From assembly GCA_021801565.1 (NCBI GenBank), contig JAJYXV010000015.1, forward strand, positions 91,168 to 155,167: 64,000 nucleotides of DNA, read 5' to 3'. Below the pieces are notes generated by a model. The model was not told the DNA's origin. It made no database searches and saw only the letters and a program-made list of their open reading frames with translations. Shown piece by piece: positions 50,755 to 62,668 of this stretch (position 1 is the stretch's first letter; every line of letters begins with the position of its first letter). Origin of the DNA: a bacterium (lineage in GTDB: Bacteria; Patescibacteriota; Minisyncoccia; UBA6257; GWB1-50-10). Made by a program: the position numbers and the translations under genes.

Positions 50755-50791
50755 TGGAGCGGAATACGGGAATCGAACCCGTGCCTTCACC
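50755..50791 (-). pseudogene. 3' half of a tRNA-Gly (anticodon-stem 3' strand through CCA), an exact duplicate of positions 39-76 of the adjacent intact tRNA-Gly.
   Basis: TGGAGCGGAATACGGGAATCGAACCCGTGCCTTCACC is identical to 50810-50846. Confidence 0.7.
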
Positions 50792-50809
50792 AAAGTTACA
50801 AAAATCTGA

Positions 50810-50883
50810 TGGAGCGGAATACGGGAATCGAACCCGTGCCTTCACCTTGGAAGGGTGACGTACAACCACTATACGAATCCCGC
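50810..50883 (-). tRNA. tRNA-Gly (anticodon TCC), CCA encoded.
   Basis: Minus strand GCGGGAT-TC-GTA..TAC-G-TCACC-CTTCCAA-GGTGA-AGGC-ACGGG-TTCGATT-CCCGT-ATTCCGC-T-CCA. Flanked by the 12-bp inverted repeats GTTACAAAAATC / GATTTTTGTAAC. Confidence 0.85.
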
Positions 50884-50906
50884 AGGTGAAGATTTTTGTA
50901 ACATTT

Positions 50907-50983
50907 TTGGAAGCCCGCCTGCCGCCTGCCTGTCGGCAGACAGGGCGGGCAGGGGTGACGTACAACCACTATACGAATCCCGC
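50907..50983 (-). pseudogene. 5' part of a second tRNA-Gly copy (positions 1-38) whose anticodon loop is interrupted between positions 32 and 33 by a 40-nt GC-rich hairpin.
   Basis: GCGGGATTCGTATAGTGGTTGTACGTCACC-C-[CTGCCCGCCCTGTCTGCCGACAGGCAGGCGGCAGGCGGGC]-TTCCAA. The first 32 nt are identical to the intact tRNA-Gly. Confidence 0.65.
50913..50952. repeat. GC-rich imperfect hairpin (copy A of the CCCGCCTGCC..CTGCCTG family).
   Basis: About 75 % GC in an AT-rich genome. Apex CCTGTC-GGCA-GACAGG. Outer stem GCCCGCC/GGCGGGC. Confidence 0.6.
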
Positions 50984-58007: not shown

Positions 58008-58550
58008 TTATATAACCCACAAAATAAAGAGAATAAGTGCAAATATAAATTCTTGTTTTGAAAAATATTTAATTGGTCCATGAAGATTTACCCCGTTAGA
58101 ATCGGAGTGCCTCATGGTTTGCTGTTGGGGCAAACGTCGACCAACCTTAGAAAGCATAGTGTTTAATATGTTGTGTGGGTTTCTAACGGGGTTTATTTTT
58201 TTCCAAGGGAAAAACGGATAGAAATCTGCATCATCAAGCGCATCAAAAAGGAGGTGACACGCGTATCCGAGAGAGAATGAAAGCGCGAAATCAAAATTAA
58301 TAAAAAATAAAATAAAACAGATTGGAATAAATGCGAATATACTATGGAGAAAATTTCTTTGATATCCGAGCGTGTCTTCTTTGTCTGAAATAATTTTTAA
58401 CAGTCTCCATGGTTTTAACAAAAGTCCGTGTTTTGCGTACACCGCCAGATGATCAAGGTCTATGAGTGTCGCGCCGATAAGCGCGGGGACATAGTTTCCG
58501 GTTATTTTTCCAATGAGAAGTCCGCCAATAATATGTGTAGGAATAAACAT
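58008..58550 (-). CDS. DUF457 membrane-bound metal-dependent hydrolase-like protein (YdjM-like).
   Basis: N-terminus MFIPTHIIGGLLIG..LIDLDHL characteristic of DUF457. Confidence 0.55.
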   Translation of the reverse strand: MFIPTHIIGGLLIGKITGNYVPALIGATLIDLDHLAVYAKHGLLLKPWRLLKIISDKEDTLGYQRNFLHSIFAFIPICFILFFINFDFALSFSLGYACHLLFDALDDADFYPFFPWKKINPVRNPHNILNTMLSKVGRRLPQQQTMRHSDSNGVNLHGPIKYFSKQEFIFALILFILWVI

Positions 58551-59423
58551 CTATTCGCTTATTCCAGAAAGGAAAATGATACTGAGAATAGTAACTACAA
58601 TTCCAACATATTGGTGCCACTTCAATTTTTCTTTATTTATAAAAAGTCCAAGCAACACCGTGATTACAATATAACTTTCACTGATGGTGGTGGCGATAGT
58701 GATTGGAATAAGTGTTGTCGACATAGCAAACAGAACCCATGCAAGGTTGTCTAAAATAGAAACACTGATAATCGGAATTGGATTTTTACGAATATCTTCT
58801 ATGAGTTCATGAAGTATTTTGTGTCGCGCGAGATAAATAAAACACACGAAGGTAAAAAGGAGACTGGTGAACCATATAGTAAGGAGCGGCGATGTTTGTT
58901 GACTTCCTACGCCAATTAAAAAATTAAAGAGCCCCATACCAATTGCGCCAACACTGGCAAATATAACTCCTTTCTCGATATTAATTCGACGATGATAGTG
59001 GAGGTGTGTATGGTGTTTTGTGATGACAAGGATAATTCCGACGAACGTTGTGAATGAAAGGAGTAGTTGTGGAAGTGAAATTATCTCTCCCCAAATGAGT
59101 GTTGAAAGACCGATAGTGATGGGAAGTTCAATACCGAGTACGGGTTCGACAATTGCAAGTTTTCCTCGTCGAAGCGATTCAAATTCAAAGAGGGCGGTAA
59201 AAAGGACAATGAGTCCAGCGAGAAAAAGAACCGCAAGGTGTTTTGGTTCCCGCAAAAGTCCGCCGAGTTCACTCACAATAAATGGAAAGATAACAATAAT
59301 ACCCGATATACCGATAAAAAAGAGGGATTTCCAGATACCGACAATGCGGCTTGATTTCTGTATAAAAAAATCGCCAAATCCCCAACATAACAACGCTCCA
59401 AATGCGAATAAAATTCCTTCCAT
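58551..59423 (-). CDS. EamA/DMT-family transporter (10 TM).
   Basis: Two EamA-like repeats of five TM helices each. 290 aa. Confidence 0.6.
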   Translation of the reverse strand: MEGILFAFGALLCWGFGDFFIQKSSRIVGIWKSLFFIGISGIIVIFPFIVSELGGLLREPKHLAVLFLAGLIVLFTALFEFESLRRGKLAIVEPVLGIELPITIGLSTLIWGEIISLPQLLLSFTTFVGIILVITKHHTHLHYHRRINIEKGVIFASVGAIGMGLFNFLIGVGSQQTSPLLTIWFTSLLFTFVCFIYLARHKILHELIEDIRKNPIPIISVSILDNLAWVLFAMSTTLIPITIATTISESYIVITVLLGLFINKEKLKWHQYVGIVVTILSIIFLSGISE

Positions 59424-59428
59424 TTTTA

Positions 59429-59503
59429 TGGTGCGCCCGGAGGGATTCGAACCCCCAACGACTGCTTCGAAGGCAGTTATGATATCCGTTTCACTACGGG
59501 CGC
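59429..59503 (-). tRNA. tRNA-Arg (anticodon TCG), CCA encoded.
   Basis: Minus strand GCGCCCG-TA-GTGA..TCAT-A-ACTGC-CTTCGAA-GCAGT-CGTT-GGGGG-TTCGAAT-CCCTC-CGGGCGC-A-CCA. Confidence 0.85.
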
Positions 59504-59583
59504 AACATTATCATTCTAATGTGATTTGTATTAAATTATCAAATTTGTTAATTTCTTGATTTCTGCCGTAAAATGAATATGAG

Positions 59584-61152
59584 ATGAAAGAGTTTTTAAT
59601 TCCAGAAGAAATACAAGAAATAGCGGAAACGCTTACACGAAATGGATATGAAGCATATCTCGTTGGGGGATGTGTGCGTGATCTTTTGATTGGTAATTCA
59701 CTAACCGGCGGACCGAAGGATTGGGACATTACCACAAATGCACATCCAAAAGAAATACAAAAACTTTTTTCCACCTTCGCGGGTGCTACGGCGGACAAGC
59801 CCGCAACCGTGTATGAAAATGATTTTGGGACGGTGGGAATAAAAACAAGATCAGAGGATTCTACATTAAAAGTTGTTGAGGTGACCACGTTTCGTATTGA
59901 GGGGACATATTCAGATAAGCGCCACCCGGATGAAATAAAATTTGCAAAAACAATTGAAGAAGATTTATCACGAAGAGATTTTACGGTGAATGCGATGGCG
60001 CTTTCGTTAACTAATAACCCACAACAAACAATTCACAATAAGAGAAAAGAAAATGTTGTCGGTAGTAAGTTGTCGGTTGTTGGTCTACTTATTGATCCAT
60101 ATAGAGGACAGGAAGATTTGAAGGATAAAATTATCCGCACGGTGGGAGATGCAGAAAAGCGATTTAATGAAGATGCGCTTCGGTTGTTGCGTGCAGTGCG
60201 TCTTTCCGCACAGCTCGGATTCGAAATAGAACAAGAAACACAAAAAGTAATAAAGAAAAATGCGCCACTGTTAAAGCATATCGCCGAAGAACGAATTCGC
60301 GACGAGTTCCAAAAACTTATTATGACTCCGCGCGCCGCTGAAGGAATGTTTATGCTTCAAAAGTTCGATTTGCTTGAGTATATTATTCCCGAACTTTTGG
60401 AAGGAGTTGGGTGCAAACAAAACAAACACCACGTCTACACAGTATTTGAACATAACGTGCGGGCACTTGAATATGCAACAGAAAAAAATTATTCACTTGA
60501 GGTGCGTCTAGCGTCGCTTTTACATGATGTTGGAAAACCACGGACAAAAAGTGGGAGCGGAGAAAGTGCAACATTTTATAATCATGAAATGGTTGGTGCG
60601 CGAATGGCCAAAGATGTGCTTGATCGACTTCGATTTCCCCGCGATCTCGTACAGAAAGTGCGCCATCTCATCCGTTACCACATGTTCTACTATAATGTGG
60701 GAGAAGTAAGCGAGGCTGGGGTGCGGCGATTTATCGCACGCATCGGAGTTGAAAATATAGATGATATTTTGAGTGTGCGTGAGGCTGATCGTGTTGGTTC
60801 AAAAGTACCAAAGGCATTTCCCTACAAACTCCGTCATCTTCTTTTTATGATTGACAAGGTGCGTCACGATCCGGTGCATCCAAAAATGCTCGCGGTAAAA
60901 GGCGATGATATTATGAGATTTTTAAATATTCCAGCTGGTCCGCGCATAGGCGATATATTATTTGTACTTCTCGAGGAGGTGTTAGATGATCCATCAAAAA
61001 ACACAAAGGAGTATCTTAAGGAAAAAGTAAAAGAGCTTGGGGTGCTTTCTCTTGTTGAATTAAGAAAACTTGCAGATGAGGGGAGAAAAAAAAGAGACTC
61101 GATTGAAGAGGGGGTTGAAAATGACATAAAAAAACGCTATTTTGTGAAATAG
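59584..61152 (+). CDS. cca: CCA-adding tRNA nucleotidyltransferase with a C-terminal HD domain.
   Basis: Head motif GGCVRDLLIG..DWDI. RRDFTVNAM. HD domain HHVYTVFEHN..LLHDVGK. Confidence 0.85.
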   Translation: MKEFLIPEEIQEIAETLTRNGYEAYLVGGCVRDLLIGNSLTGGPKDWDITTNAHPKEIQKLFSTFAGATADKPATVYENDFGTVGIKTRSEDSTLKVVEVTTFRIEGTYSDKRHPDEIKFAKTIEEDLSRRDFTVNAMALSLTNNPQQTIHNKRKENVVGSKLSVVGLLIDPYRGQEDLKDKIIRTVGDAEKRFNEDALRLLRAVRLSAQLGFEIEQETQKVIKKNAPLLKHIAEERIRDEFQKLIMTPRAAEGMFMLQKFDLLEYIIPELLEGVGCKQNKHHVYTVFEHNVRALEYATEKNYSLEVRLASLLHDVGKPRTKSGSGESATFYNHEMVGARMAKDVLDRLRFPRDLVQKVRHLIRYHMFYYNVGEVSEAGVRRFIARIGVENIDDILSVREADRVGSKVPKAFPYKLRHLLFMIDKVRHDPVHPKMLAVKGDDIMRFLNIPAGPRIGDILFVLLEEVLDDPSKNTKEYLKEKVKELGVLSLVELRKLADEGRKKRDSIEEGVENDIKKRYFVK

Positions 61153-61155
61153 GCA

Positions 61156-61563
61156 ATGAATAAGTTTTTCGAGAAAAAGATTTGGAGAGCGCTCGCAGTC
61201 ACATGGGGAACACTCTATCTCGTATTGATTACGTTGGATTTTTTCTTTGCGAACAAATATGAGTATATACTTGGCTCGTTCGGAACGCTCTATATCGCGG
61301 TTCTGAGTATTTTTGTGGGGAGTAAGGAATTCGACCGCTGGCATGACAGTCACCCGGGAAAACGTCATGGAGAATTTTTTGTTATTGCGTTCAGTATTAT
61401 CCTCGTCGTGTTCTTTGTTTCATCTTTTTTTCTTGGACCGGAATATAAAGTGGGTACCGATATAATTGCGACGTATATTGCAATTCTTTCCGTTTATGTA
61501 TTGAGTCAGAAATCGAAAGAATTATACGGTGCGCATCGCGAAGATCAGAAACATTTGTTATAG
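61156..61563 (+). CDS. Hypothetical four-TM membrane protein.
   Basis: 135-aa hydrophobic ORF. Confidence 0.35.
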   Translation: MNKFFEKKIWRALAVTWGTLYLVLITLDFFFANKYEYILGSFGTLYIAVLSIFVGSKEFDRWHDSHPGKRHGEFFVIAFSIILVVFFVSSFFLGPEYKVGTDIIATYIAILSVYVLSQKSKELYGAHREDQKHLL

Positions 61564-61656
61564 TGTCTCAACGCGGGGTGGAGTCAAAAAGAAAAACATG
61601 TTTTCTATGTGATAAATATGACGGCAGTACACACGTTTTGGGGTTGAATATTTTGT

Positions 61657-61727
61657 CGGGGCGGAGTATGTCGGTAGTACGCACGCTTCGGGTGCGTGTA
61701 GACCGAGTTCAATTCTCGGCGCCCCGA
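61657..61727 (+). tRNA. tRNA-Pro (anticodon CGG). No CCA encoded. Flanked directly by 13-bp inverted repeats.
   Basis: CGGGGCG-GA-GTATGTCGGTAGTAC-G-CACGC-TTCGGGT-GCGTG-TAGA-CCGAG-TTCAATT-CTCGG-CGCCCCG-A. Flanks TTGAATATTTTGT (61644-61656) and ACAAAATATTCAA (61727-61739). Confidence 0.8.
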
Positions 61728-61796
61728 CAAAATATTCAACGGGAATGTTGGGGACATTCCCTGGAAATTTATAAAAAATTTATATAGACAGGGTTC

Positions 61797-61845
61797 CCCG
61801 CCTGCCCTGCCTGCCGTCAGGCGGGCGTCGGGCAGGAATTCCCTG
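61797..61845. repeat. GC-rich imperfect hairpin (copy B of the CCCGCCTGCC..CTGCCTG family), about 65 nt downstream of tRNA-Pro(CGG).
   Basis: CCCCGCCTGCCCTGCCTGCCGTCAGGCGGGCGTCGGGCAGG-AATTC-CCTGC.. shares the 5' arm motif with 50913-50952. Confidence 0.5.
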
Positions 61846-61906
61846 CTTGCCCGTCCGTAGCTTTAGCGAAGGCGGGTAGCCCGATAAAATAACATTACCA
61901 ATAAAC

Positions 61907-61930
61907 AAAAAACTCCCACATGGGAGTTTT
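61907..61930 (+). terminator. Rho-independent terminator closing the tRNA-Pro(CGG)/GC-hairpin transcription unit.
   Basis: AACTCCCA-CA-TGGGAGTTTT. Confidence 0.55.
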
Positions 61931-61972
61931 CAACTTTGTTTTACTGTTTCAAAAAAATTATAATTTATACAT

Positions 61973-62668
61973 ATGATTCTTAAAATTGCCCATCGTGGAG
62001 CATCTGCATACAAGCCGGAGGATACCATTATTGCGTTTCAAAAAGCGCTTGAAATGAAAGCGGATGCACTTGGAATTGATGTACACGTATGTAAAAGCGG
62101 AGAGGTGGTGGTAATACACGACAGGACGTTGAGGCGGATAACAAATGGAAAAGGACACGTGCGCGACAAGACGCTCACTGAACTAAAACAGCTTATTGTG
62201 GAGGGGAGTGCACACATAGCGACACTTGAAGAAACAATTAATTTTGTTGATAGAAAGATGAAGTTAGACATTGAATTGAAGGAAAGGGGATGTGCAGAAC
62301 CCACATATAGAATTGTTAAAAATGCAATTGAAAAACACGGATGGCTGTATGACAATTTTTTCATTTCATCGTTTATTCGTTCAGAACTTAAAACCATGAA
62401 ACTATTGGACAATAAAATCCAATTAAGTGTTTTGTTTAACTGGTTGCTTCAATTTGGTGTGTTTCGGTTTGCAAAGAAAATTGGTGCCTATTCGATTAAT
62501 CCATCACTTTTGGTTACGAACAAAAAACTTGTGGATTATGCACATAAAGAGGGGATGAAAGTTTTTGTATGGACAGTGAACAAGGAAAAAGATATCACAC
62601 AAATGAAAAGGATTGGTGTTGATGGTATCTTTTCTGATTTTCCTGATAGATTAAAAAAAGTATTGTAA
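61973..62668 (+). CDS. Glycerophosphodiester phosphodiesterase (GDPD family).
   Basis: N-terminus IAHRGAS..PE-T..AF and VHVCKSGEVVVIHD motifs of GDPD. Confidence 0.85.
   Translation: MILKIAHRGASAYKPEDTIIAFQKALEMKADALGIDVHVCKSGEVVVIHDRTLRRITNGKGHVRDKTLTELKQLIVEGSAHIATLEETINFVDRKMKLDIELKERGCAEPTYRIVKNAIEKHGWLYDNFFISSFIRSELKTMKLLDNKIQLSVLFNWLLQFGVFRFAKKIGAYSINPSLLVTNKKLVDYAHKEGMKVFVWTVNKEKDITQMKRIGVDGIFSDFPDRLKKVL

Follow-up and report, generated by a model that had tools for sequence, protein, structure and literature searches.

How does a transfer RNA gene come to lie, without a single spacer nucleotide, between the arms of a perfect inverted repeat (IR) and next to what looks like a fragment of itself? 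The question is raised by a tRNA-Pro(CGG) gene near the end of a 64,000-nucleotide stretch of contig JAJYXV010000015.1 (assembly GCA_021801565.1, positions 91,168 to 155,167 of the forward strand), hereafter the window. A protein of the window maps to assembly GCA_027423585.1. The relatives of the host genome, a metagenome-assembled one from the Patescibacteria (Paceibacterota/Parcubacteria), are Wolfebacteria-like and other Paceibacteria, and because the window contains a tmRNA gene (ARAGORN) the host is a bacterium. Judged by its sequence and those of its relatives, the locus, 310 nt in all and placed between two ordinary genes, is a composite in which a working proline tRNA sits inside the anticodon loop of an older, broken proline tRNA, held there by a conserved RNA helix. 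All parts of this composite are on the + strand.

The inner gene, presumed to be functional, occupies 61657-61727 (71 nt, with no encoded CCA) and is identical in the sister genome L107. ARAGORN calls tRNA-Pro(CGG) at 61657-61728, and the Rfam family RF00005 scores 47.1 bits for 61657-61727 against a threshold of 29 when the region is searched alone; a whole-window Rfam scan at the gathering threshold missed the gene because of its speed filters. A repeat search finds two arms of 21 nt each, 61643-61663 and 61720-61740, that are 100% complementary. They comprise the 7-bp acceptor stem and 14 flanking pairs (GTTGAATATTTTGT / ACAAAATATTCAAC) with zero spacer between the two, T61656 pairing with the discriminator A61727. 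The flanking pairs form the leader-trailer helix, or P helix, whose 5' arm is IR-L (61643-61656) and whose 3' arm, from the discriminator on, is IR-R (61727-61740). A first-pass annotation had reported an inverted repeat of 13 bp abutting the tRNA; the repeat and the lack of a spacer stand, and the count was one pair short. The 106-nt precursor has a predicted folding energy of -55.5 kcal/mol (z = -7.5). None of the other five plain tRNAs of the window has its acceptor stem prolonged by any helix; a flanking inverted repeat, of 13-16 bp with short spacers, is found around just one more tRNA of the window, tRNA-Gly(TCC).

Upstream of the inner gene, 61617-61642 agrees with 61667-61692 in 21 of 26 positions, a score reached by one of 500 flank shuffles, and a collinear second piece, CGGGGTGGAGT (61574-61584), matches nt 1-11 of the tRNA in 10 of 11. 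The upstream half-copy stands at the same place in the related loci L013, L068, L107 and L011 and in many metagenome loci, and it is mainly because homologous half-copies recur in relatives that a chance origin of the similarity is excluded. The partial duplicate that the first-pass annotation had noticed is therefore real, and it extends further upstream than had been seen. Relatives show the outer gene to be split by the insert, and the 'duplicate' is thus the 5' half of a resident gene. Read together with its relatives, 61574-61884 is an older tRNA-Pro-like gene, or shell, interrupted by several hairpin-forming insertions.

To survey this layout we used as anchor the CCA-adding enzyme gene, which lies just upstream of the composite (synteny stretch 59584-61152), and retrieved 80 loci from other species, in 57 of which tRNA-Pro(CGG) directly follows that gene. 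Strong leader-trailer pairing, with unrelated sequences, occurs in 10 of these 57 orthologous loci, and every member of the ten that was closely examined has outer half-copies. The flanking helix measures 16 bp in L013 and 15 bp in L016 and L019 (14 bp by a first count). A metagenome scan with a pattern that required TTTGGGG and, 10-20 nt further on, the 5' portion of the tRNA, and that left the 3' side and the repeat free, returned 45 stretches; these yielded 35 distinct loci which, with 4 already known, make 39, and the helix is present in 37 of them. The tRNA-in-tRNA layout is recurrent, being found in 38 other distinct loci of Paceibacteria genomes and metagenomes. In nearly all, the order is outer 5' half, TTTGGGG, helix of 14-17 bp, inner tRNA-Pro, a first hairpin (HP1), YGG, a second hairpin (HP2), TT and outer 3' half. 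The motif TTTGGGG also occurs in the window, L013, L016 and L019, and as TTAGGGG in L068, all loci retrieved without reference to it. The inner tRNA-Pro has the anticodon CGG or UGG. In the shell, the D arm of the 5' half is often intact, T arm and acceptor stem are intact in 19 loci (CCA being encoded in four of those), and about half of the loci carry hairpin insertions in the D arm or T loop. HP1 is present in 32 of 33 parsed loci and HP2 was seen in most of the 33, several automatic parses being poor; the stem sequences of HP2 vary by locus (for example CTCC/GGAG and AAATCGT/ACGATTT). Nesting has several layers in L118, L109, L116 and L140; the middle tRNA of L118 is enclosed by a second helix, of ~53 bp, after which comes another HP1-HP2-3' half.

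The closest species representative, L011 (3180-3508; 78% identity in the CCA enzyme), carries its 5' unit (CACGTTTTGGGG + TAATATAATTTTGT + CGGGGTGGAGT) as a tandem pair ahead of the inner tRNA, an arrangement that unequal recombination between the 5' halves of the outer and inner genes would be expected to produce.

The 39 loci were compared in an ungapped alignment (A1) anchored on the inner tRNA only. At 13 of 14 helix pairs both sides have changed, with three to five pair types per position, and 94.4% of the helix cells are paired, the two helix-less loci included, versus 34-51% when the partner is slid by 1-3 columns. The leader-trailer helix covaries more strongly than the tRNA stems themselves. 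Its non-Watson-Crick cells are mostly G.U, 18 versus 4 A.C, a ratio that becomes 40:9 with HP1 and HP2 added (binomial p 5e-6, for sequences that are not independent), and the HP1 stems covary as well (242 Watson-Crick pairs, 9 G.U and 3 mismatches in the 33 parsed loci). This asymmetry of G.U over A.C argues for a constraint on the tRNA-sense single strand, most simply as RNA. Between the window and L107, whose CCA enzymes are 80% identical, the junction, helix, inner tRNA, HP1 and HP2 differ very little, with one compensatory A-T to G-C pair at 61650/61733, while the shell has many indels, including a 44-nt deletion; the core of the insert is therefore constrained in place although the outer gene is dead. 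Covariation thus shows the two arms to behave as paired RNA that selection maintains in the tRNA-sense transcript. The first-pass annotation had named loss of the repeat in orthologous loci and a chance origin of the upstream similarity as the findings that would speak against it; the repeat proved to be conserved as a structure in orthologous and related loci, and the similarity to be non-random.

Within the inner tRNA-Pro, the tertiary pair 8-14 appears to covary: G8 and G14 (window 61664 and 61670, columns 25 and 31 of A1) are found in the window, L013, L107, L112 and L134, and U8/A14 in the other 34.

The origin of the layout is best seen in a second composite of the window, tRNA-Gly(TCC), at 50755-50983 on the - strand, whose sequence is the same in two NCBI assemblies. 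Its outer 5' half (50983-50953) and outer 3' half (50791-50755) are identical to the inner copy over 31/31 and 37/37 positions, and the insert sits between nt 38 and 39 of the outer gene. From 5' to 3', the outer 5' half is followed by a 40-nt GC palindrome between nt 32 and 33 (50952-50913), the rest of the loop TTCCAA (50912-50907), IR-L (AAAT-GTTACAAAAATCT, 50906-50890), the spacer TCACCT, the full inner tRNA (50883-50810), TC, and IR-R (AGATTTTTGTAAC-TTT, 50807-50792). At 991-1064, L107 has an uninterrupted tRNA-Gly(TCC) with leader (…gtgcaaaattgtatgagtg) and trailer (gatttgtaacgtt…) as in the outer halves of the window; with the same flanks and no insert, it represents the empty site. After the inner Gly copy the native trailer appears once more, slightly diverged, and it is the reverse complement of this second version that forms IR-L. 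At the Pro locus, the first 8 nt of IR-R match the outer trailer (61884-61891) in 7 of 8, and the outer trailer, taken with A61884, matches the inner IR-R of L112 (ACAAAATAACATTACC) in 15 of 16 positions and that of L013 in 14 of 16. From these matches at both loci it follows that the inner gene and its trailer were copied locally and that the upstream arm is an inverted copy of the trailer.

The first-pass annotation had drawn the two loci together, and the Gly locus does share the features of the Pro locus, being nested in its own half-copies and flanked by its own inverted repeat. What it made of this, namely tRNA genes carried on small IR-bounded cassettes that leave half-copies behind, does not agree with the comparison. 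The half-copies belong to a resident tRNA gene that an insert has divided in two, the Gly insert is a local copy with its native trailer and an empty site in L107, and the inverted repeats differ at every locus, including Gly versus Pro of the same genome, rather than forming one family of terminal repeats that cassettes could share.

We propose instead that the older tRNA-Pro gene (61574-61884) was interrupted, where its anticodon loop ends on the 3' side, by an insert consisting of an inverted copy of its own 3' trailer (IR-L), a copy of the tRNA, the trailer (IR-R), HP1 and HP2. Such a local nested duplication may have arisen by multi-step template switching in replication, for which the Gly case offers the direct support. 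The nascent strand would depart at the anticodon loop, copy the trailer on the opposite strand, realign via the palindromic acceptor stem, copy the tRNA and trailer, and finally go back to the original template. A switch of this kind would account for the zero spacer, the -1/73 (discriminator) pair and the initially perfect arms; the Gly junctions hold extra short patches that the model does not fully explain. Break points differ in other families (after nt 26 in L028 and 31 in L047; overall after nt 26, 31, 32 and 38), and tRNA-Ala(CGC) shows similar events in relatives, both of which fit a mutational process better than a site-specific element.

What, then, might the helix be kept for? The best reading of the data, and one that we consider on balance probable, is that a nested local duplication came first and that selection on the RNA then favoured a clamp or processing stalk. 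When 11 composites with intact shells were folded by partition function, the inner acceptor stem had a probability of 0.95 with the native arm, 0.44 with IR-L shuffled, and 0.91 with IR-L shuffled and the outer halves deleted. For the Gly composite, shuffling IR-L lowered the value from 0.67 to 0.00 for the acceptor stem and from 0.89 to 0.01 for the T arm. The helix is thus predicted to be needed for the fold of the inner tRNA because the transcript holds competing half-copies. It would clamp the ends of the inner pre-tRNA, allowing it to fold independently despite half-copies able to pair with it, and would offer a defined stalk for release of the tRNA by RNase P and RNase Z, possibly once RNase III or another nuclease specific for double strands has cut the 21-bp duplex. 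CCA, which is not encoded, would be added afterwards; the gene of the CCA-adding enzyme is just upstream. We infer from these in silico folds that a clamp and processing stalk for the inner pre-tRNA is the best-supported function.

Several observations weigh against this interpretation. The helices of the window, L013, L016 and L019 are without any G.U pair, and repeated correction of a palindrome at the DNA level fits them as well; likewise, wobble pairs tolerated on one strand could also reflect a hairpin of single-stranded DNA. The clamp effect comes from a thermodynamic model that ignores co-transcriptional folding and proteins, and in the window, where the shell has decayed, shuffling IR-L matters little (0.99 to 0.90), yet the helix is perfect. 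HP1, HP2 and the junction nucleotides (TTTGGGG, YGG, and TT at 39-40) are conserved and unexplained by a clamp. Many shells, moreover, are perfect cloverleaves with compensatory changes in the acceptor stem, where a junk shell predicts otherwise unless there is gene conversion. Concerted changes in the acceptor stems of inner and outer copies between L013 and L112 suggest, on alignment, that gene conversion between the two does occur, and in this way shells might stay intact even if they had no function.

It may also be, as the first-pass annotation had offered as its alternative, that the duplex of 21-24 bp is mainly a putative substrate for a double-strand nuclease such as RNase III, which acts in this way on rRNA operons; the step would be obligatory as the paired leader would block RNase P and RNase Z. 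We rate this as unlikely, if the least so of the alternatives. Measured against the ~20 bp or more that leader and trailer would have to provide, the duplex is 21 bp in the window and 21-24 bp in relatives; it is continuous (acceptor plus 14-17 bp) and narrow in length range in nearly all loci, covaries at the RNA level, and includes a U(-1)-A73 pair in 35 of 37, which leaves no single-stranded leader at the cleavage site. On the other hand, the helix occurs only around tRNAs inside half-copies and is absent in 47 of the 57 orthologous tRNA-Pro(CGG) genes and from the other tRNAs of the window; it is therefore not a general maturation route in these organisms. Nor is its length fixed, as the ~53 bp of one L118 layer makes plain.

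A truly mobile cassette seems to us rather improbable. Here IR-L, tRNA and IR-R, perhaps with HP1 and HP2, would be a non-autonomous element that enters the anticodon loop of a cognate tRNA gene and brings a replacement tRNA with it. The insert always lies in a gene for the same amino acid, and the same core is found both near the CCA-enzyme gene and in other contexts, with an inner CGG or UGG. Layers like those of an onion (L118, L109, L116, L140), the duplicated 5' unit of L011 and junction nucleotides that stay constant even where outer and inner copies are nearly identical (L097) would suit an element too. Yet its repeats form no family, differing per locus and between Gly and Pro of one genome; IR-R equals the local native trailer and so implies a local copy; no target-site duplication borders the insert; the break points vary by family (after nt 26, 31, 32 or 38); and the wobble pattern indicates a constraint on a single strand, not on duplex ends. 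With regard to miniature inverted-repeat transposable elements or insertion sequences (IS), the Gly repeat GTTACAAAAATCT differs from the Pro repeat GTTGAATATTTTGT and there are no further copies in the window. As for islands inserted by an integrase, there is no Pfam-matched open reading frame (ORF) in the composite, no transposase or integrase search having been made, and the 5' half is displaced as well. An integron attC site was rejected on inspection, as GTTGAAT...ATTCAAC stands in an orientation opposite to R''/R', and IS200/IS605-type ends found no support, as the left and right hairpins are dissimilar.

More improbable again, in our judgement, is that the outer tRNA-Pro(UGG) is functional and that helix, inner tRNA, HP1 and HP2 make up a new kind of bacterial intron at 38/39. 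To the same low degree we credit its corollary, that one transcript would yield two tRNAs, the inner released by RNase P and RNase Z and the outer rejoined over a conserved four-way junction by cleavage and ligation. Equally slim is the case for a variant in which the outer, two-piece tRNA-like RNA has a non-decoding role. On either view the copy in the window would stem from a lineage whose outer gene had lost its use and decayed. The site adjoins the canonical 37/38 intron position, covariation extends to every helix of the insert, and the nucleotides at the junctions are conserved. The 19 loci mentioned retain an intact outer T arm and acceptor stem, often with compensatory changes relative to the inner copy, and CCA in four of them is in keeping with a functional gene; removal of the insert in silico leads ARAGORN to report tRNA-Pro(UGG) in 9 of 14 cases. 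However, the outer gene has been disabled independently in the window, L107 and L011 while the insert was conserved, further hairpins have entered the outer D arm or T loop in about half of the loci, and TT at positions 39-40 weakens the anticodon stem. In addition, the L028 and L047 families are without an anticodon stem strand or the whole loop, and an inner tRNA that is UGG as well makes the outer copy redundant.

Known splicing systems give this intron no further help. Intron_gpI had no match at E<=10 in the region of the window, nor in 14 loci searched at the gathering score or 8 intact composites searched at E<=1. The boundaries also differ from those of group I introns, where the 5' exon ends in U and an internal guide sequence is free at the 5' end of the intron: here the 5' boundary is ...TTTGGG(G), and IR-R pairs with all of the insert's first 14-16 nt. 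A bulge-helix-bulge motif, that is, two 3-nt bulges with a 4-bp helix between them at the splice sites, is likewise missing: 35 of the 37 distinct rows have a continuous, bulge-free helix; a single strand of 5-7 nt makes up the 5' junction, and HP1/HP2 the 3' junction. The junction sequences and Rfam scans rule out the hammerhead and other small ribozymes. We know of no bacterial enzyme for such splicing. A literature search for 'splicing endonuclease' in connection with Patescibacteria found nothing. The intron mode of ARAGORN was set aside as too noisy, producing chimeras between adjacent tRNAs.

That the palindrome is the mere, functionless scar of a template-switch or quasi-palindrome mutation, as the perfect Watson-Crick arms of the window and their derivation from the local trailer might suggest, is very improbable and already disfavoured, since pairing is kept through wide sequence turnover in 37 loci while the adjoining shell decays and the mismatch spectrum is biased to G.U.

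The remaining parts of the composite belong to the shell. Its acceptor 5' strand, CGGGGTG, with GAGT (nt 1-11, 61574-61584) forms 6 of 7 pairs with 61877-61883, and a stub of nt 1-11 followed by an insertion is found likewise in L013, L107 and L011. An AT-rich insertion of ~32 nt with the palindrome GAAAACATGTTTTC (61585-61616, repeat search) then interrupts the outer D arm; at this site L107 and L011 have another hairpin (GGAAAGC..GCTTTC). The rest of the D arm and the 5' strand of the anticodon stem (TATGACGGCAGTAC A CACGT, 61617-61636), identified by the 21/26 identity, lead to the outer anticodon loop TTTGGGG (UGG-type, 61637-61643), the junction whose last G opens the helix. Directly 3' of the helix come HP1 (GGGAATGTT-GGG-GACATTCCC, 61741-61761), identical in L107, and a linker TGG with HP2 (AAATTT-ATAAA-AAATTT; 61762-61781, HP2 itself 61765-61781), which differs from L107 by one loop indel. 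The outer 3' half resumes at 61782-61796 with a degenerate anticodon-stem 3' strand (ATA; GTG in L107), variable TAGA, T-stem CAGGG and T-loop TTC; intact outer 3' halves for comparison are those of L097, L112 and L139. A GC-rich palindromic insertion of 40 nt (61797-61836, repeat search) splits the T loop, which ends with AATT before the T-stem 3' strand CCCTG (61837-61845; 5/5 pairs with CAGGG), the outer loop TTC^AATT being the same as the inner TTCAATT. A second GC-rich hairpin (TTGCCCGTCC..GGCGGG, 61846-61876, repeat search) is deleted in L107; a similar motif stands directly 5' of tRNA-Pro in L065. The shell closes with the acceptor 3' strand TAGCCCG and discriminator A (61877-61884; direct and inverted repeats, 6/7 pairs with 61574-61580) and continues into the native outer trailer TAAAATAACATTACC (61885-61899). 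It is not recognised as a tRNA in the window, and in this genome it is a decaying pseudogene colonised by hairpin and GC-palindrome insertions.

These palindromes and HP1 deserve a note of their own. The GC-rich palindromes of ~40 nt (50913-50952 and 61797-61836; also 61847-61876) stand out in a genome of 37% GC, and in the window they occur only in the loops of dead tRNA shells, namely the outer Gly anticodon loop and the outer Pro T loop; by manual alignment the first two agree in ~27/33 positions. A search of the window for CCTGCC..GGCGGGC gave nothing, and when the tRNAs and GC-rich segments were compared with the window by BLAST, copies turned up nowhere but at the two composite loci. Shorter palindromes, TCCGCC-ANTT-GGCGGA, lie at the same T-loop position in L016, L028 and L118. 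The loop of HP1 is often a 7-nt YYGGGRR on a stem of 6-7 bp (window, L101, L111, L120, L131, L134 and others) and resembles the anticodon arm of tRNA-Pro(GGG), so that the junction UUUGGGG, the inner CGG loop and HP1 give the composite three Pro-type loops. A descent of HP1 from the anticodon arm of an adjoining tRNA-Pro(GGG) was rejected, the sequences disagreeing in L111 and L130.

Around the composite, the order CCA-adding enzyme gene, then tRNA-Pro(CGG), is widely kept in Paceibacteria (the 57 related loci), with the tRNA lacking an encoded CCA; in the window a membrane-like ORF of 135 aa with no Pfam family lies between the two. A Pfam scan covered five ORFs at 58008-62668, and ORF 61563-61787, entirely inside the tRNA/structured-RNA region, had no match; as the first-pass annotation held, it is most likely an artefact of the RNA locus. 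The transcript of the composite probably ends at a terminator-like hairpin (61909-61930), the only one given by a terminator scan, which found no GC-rich hairpin with U tract at the repeat or HP1/HP2. No promoter-like site was found between the upstream gene and the composite. An assembly artefact was rejected, since three independent assemblies agree on the Pro locus letter for letter, as do two from NCBI on the Gly locus; short Logan contigs stop exactly in repeated or conserved parts of the tRNAs, as real repeats predict.

Other tRNA-linked repeats came to light in the relatives. Many tRNAs (Arg-TCG, Lys-CTT, Pro, Ala-CGC) have an exact copy of their last 18-23 nt located 120-250 nt downstream (L031 5438-5990; L021, L036, L012, L013, L018, L042-L044, L062, L140 and L141). 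Between tRNA and copy lies a structured, GC-rich mini-element that begins with an antisense copy of the T arm, has HP1/HP2-like hairpins and no Rfam match, and forms tandem arrays in L031 (3 x 126 nt) and L140. Another kind is seen in L111 (- strand, ~1070-1330), where two repeat units of ~95 nt precede tRNA-Pro(GGG), each opening with a 9-nt stub of the 5' end of the tRNA (CGGGCCGTA) and folded as a hairpin. A LOOT RNA (RF03000, 72 bits) at L019 5716-5834 (- strand) is unrelated to the composite.

Taken together, the composites constitute a recurrent layout, which we have not found described, in a major uncultured bacterial lineage: complete tRNAs within older copies of themselves, sometimes in several layers. 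The empty site in the sister genome makes this a datable example of tRNA gene duplication and replacement in streamlined genomes, after which RNA-level selection would build a structural 'insulator' around the working copy. For annotation, composites yield spurious ORFs, tRNA pseudogene fragments and tRNAs missed by filtered covariance searches, and they may be under-annotated. They also raise the question of how RNase P and RNase Z handle a fully paired leader, and whether tRNA inserts are removed in bacteria by any means other than group I splicing; were the intron proposal true, it would be a categorically new, tRNA-bearing intervening sequence. Candidate RNA motifs, so far with no Rfam match, are the conserved HP1/HP2 module and the GC-rich palindromes inserted in tRNA loops.

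It remains to set the arrangement beside known systems. It belongs to no Rfam family and no description of it was found in the searchable literature; Rfam scans around the composites, permissive E-values included, returned only tRNA, the weak SpF41_sRNA and microRNA hits being rejected as merely overlapping the tRNA and the long hairpin. Within Patescibacteria, self-splicing group I introns (IA) have been reported at position 35/36 of tRNA-Asn and tRNA-Asp, and they share with the composite the phylum and an insertion in the anticodon loop (PMC13011429). They differ in that the insert here is ~150 nt, holds a tRNA and three helices, lies at 38/39 of tRNA-Pro and has no Intron_gpI match.

The split tRNAs of Nanoarchaeum have complementary leader sequences. 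Archaeal intron-containing and split tRNAs resemble the composite in a break at or near the anticodon loop, with complementary sequences after the 5' half and before the 3' half; unlike them, it occurs in a bacterium, has no bulge-helix-bulge, encloses a complete tRNA in its helix and has, in this genome, a decayed outer gene. Williams reportedly described in 2002 displaced tRNA fragments at phage and genomic-island integration sites, with sublocations in the anticodon loop and T loop. Common to both are an insert flanked by partial copies of a tRNA, an intact gene that survives, and breaks at the anticodon loop, joined by breaks at the T loop in the mini-elements of the relatives. In contrast, the insert of the composites is 116-250 nt with no integrase, the whole tRNA inside it is a copy made at the same locus, displacement affects the 5' half upstream as well as the 3' half downstream, and an inverted repeat surrounds the inner gene.

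Closest in structure are stems formed by leader and trailer. In bacteria, the 16S and 23S rRNA precursors have such stems, which are cut by RNase III; at the composite such a cut is putative. Leader-trailer pairing is also described for the MALAT1 mascRNA precursor (PMC8457004). The rRNA and mascRNA stems and the P helix are alike in that the flanks pair, a long helix prolongs the terminal stem, and pairing is kept where sequence is not. The composite stands apart in that its helix surrounds a single tRNA, is found only inside that tRNA's own half-copies, and runs coaxially with the acceptor stem through the -1/73 pair.

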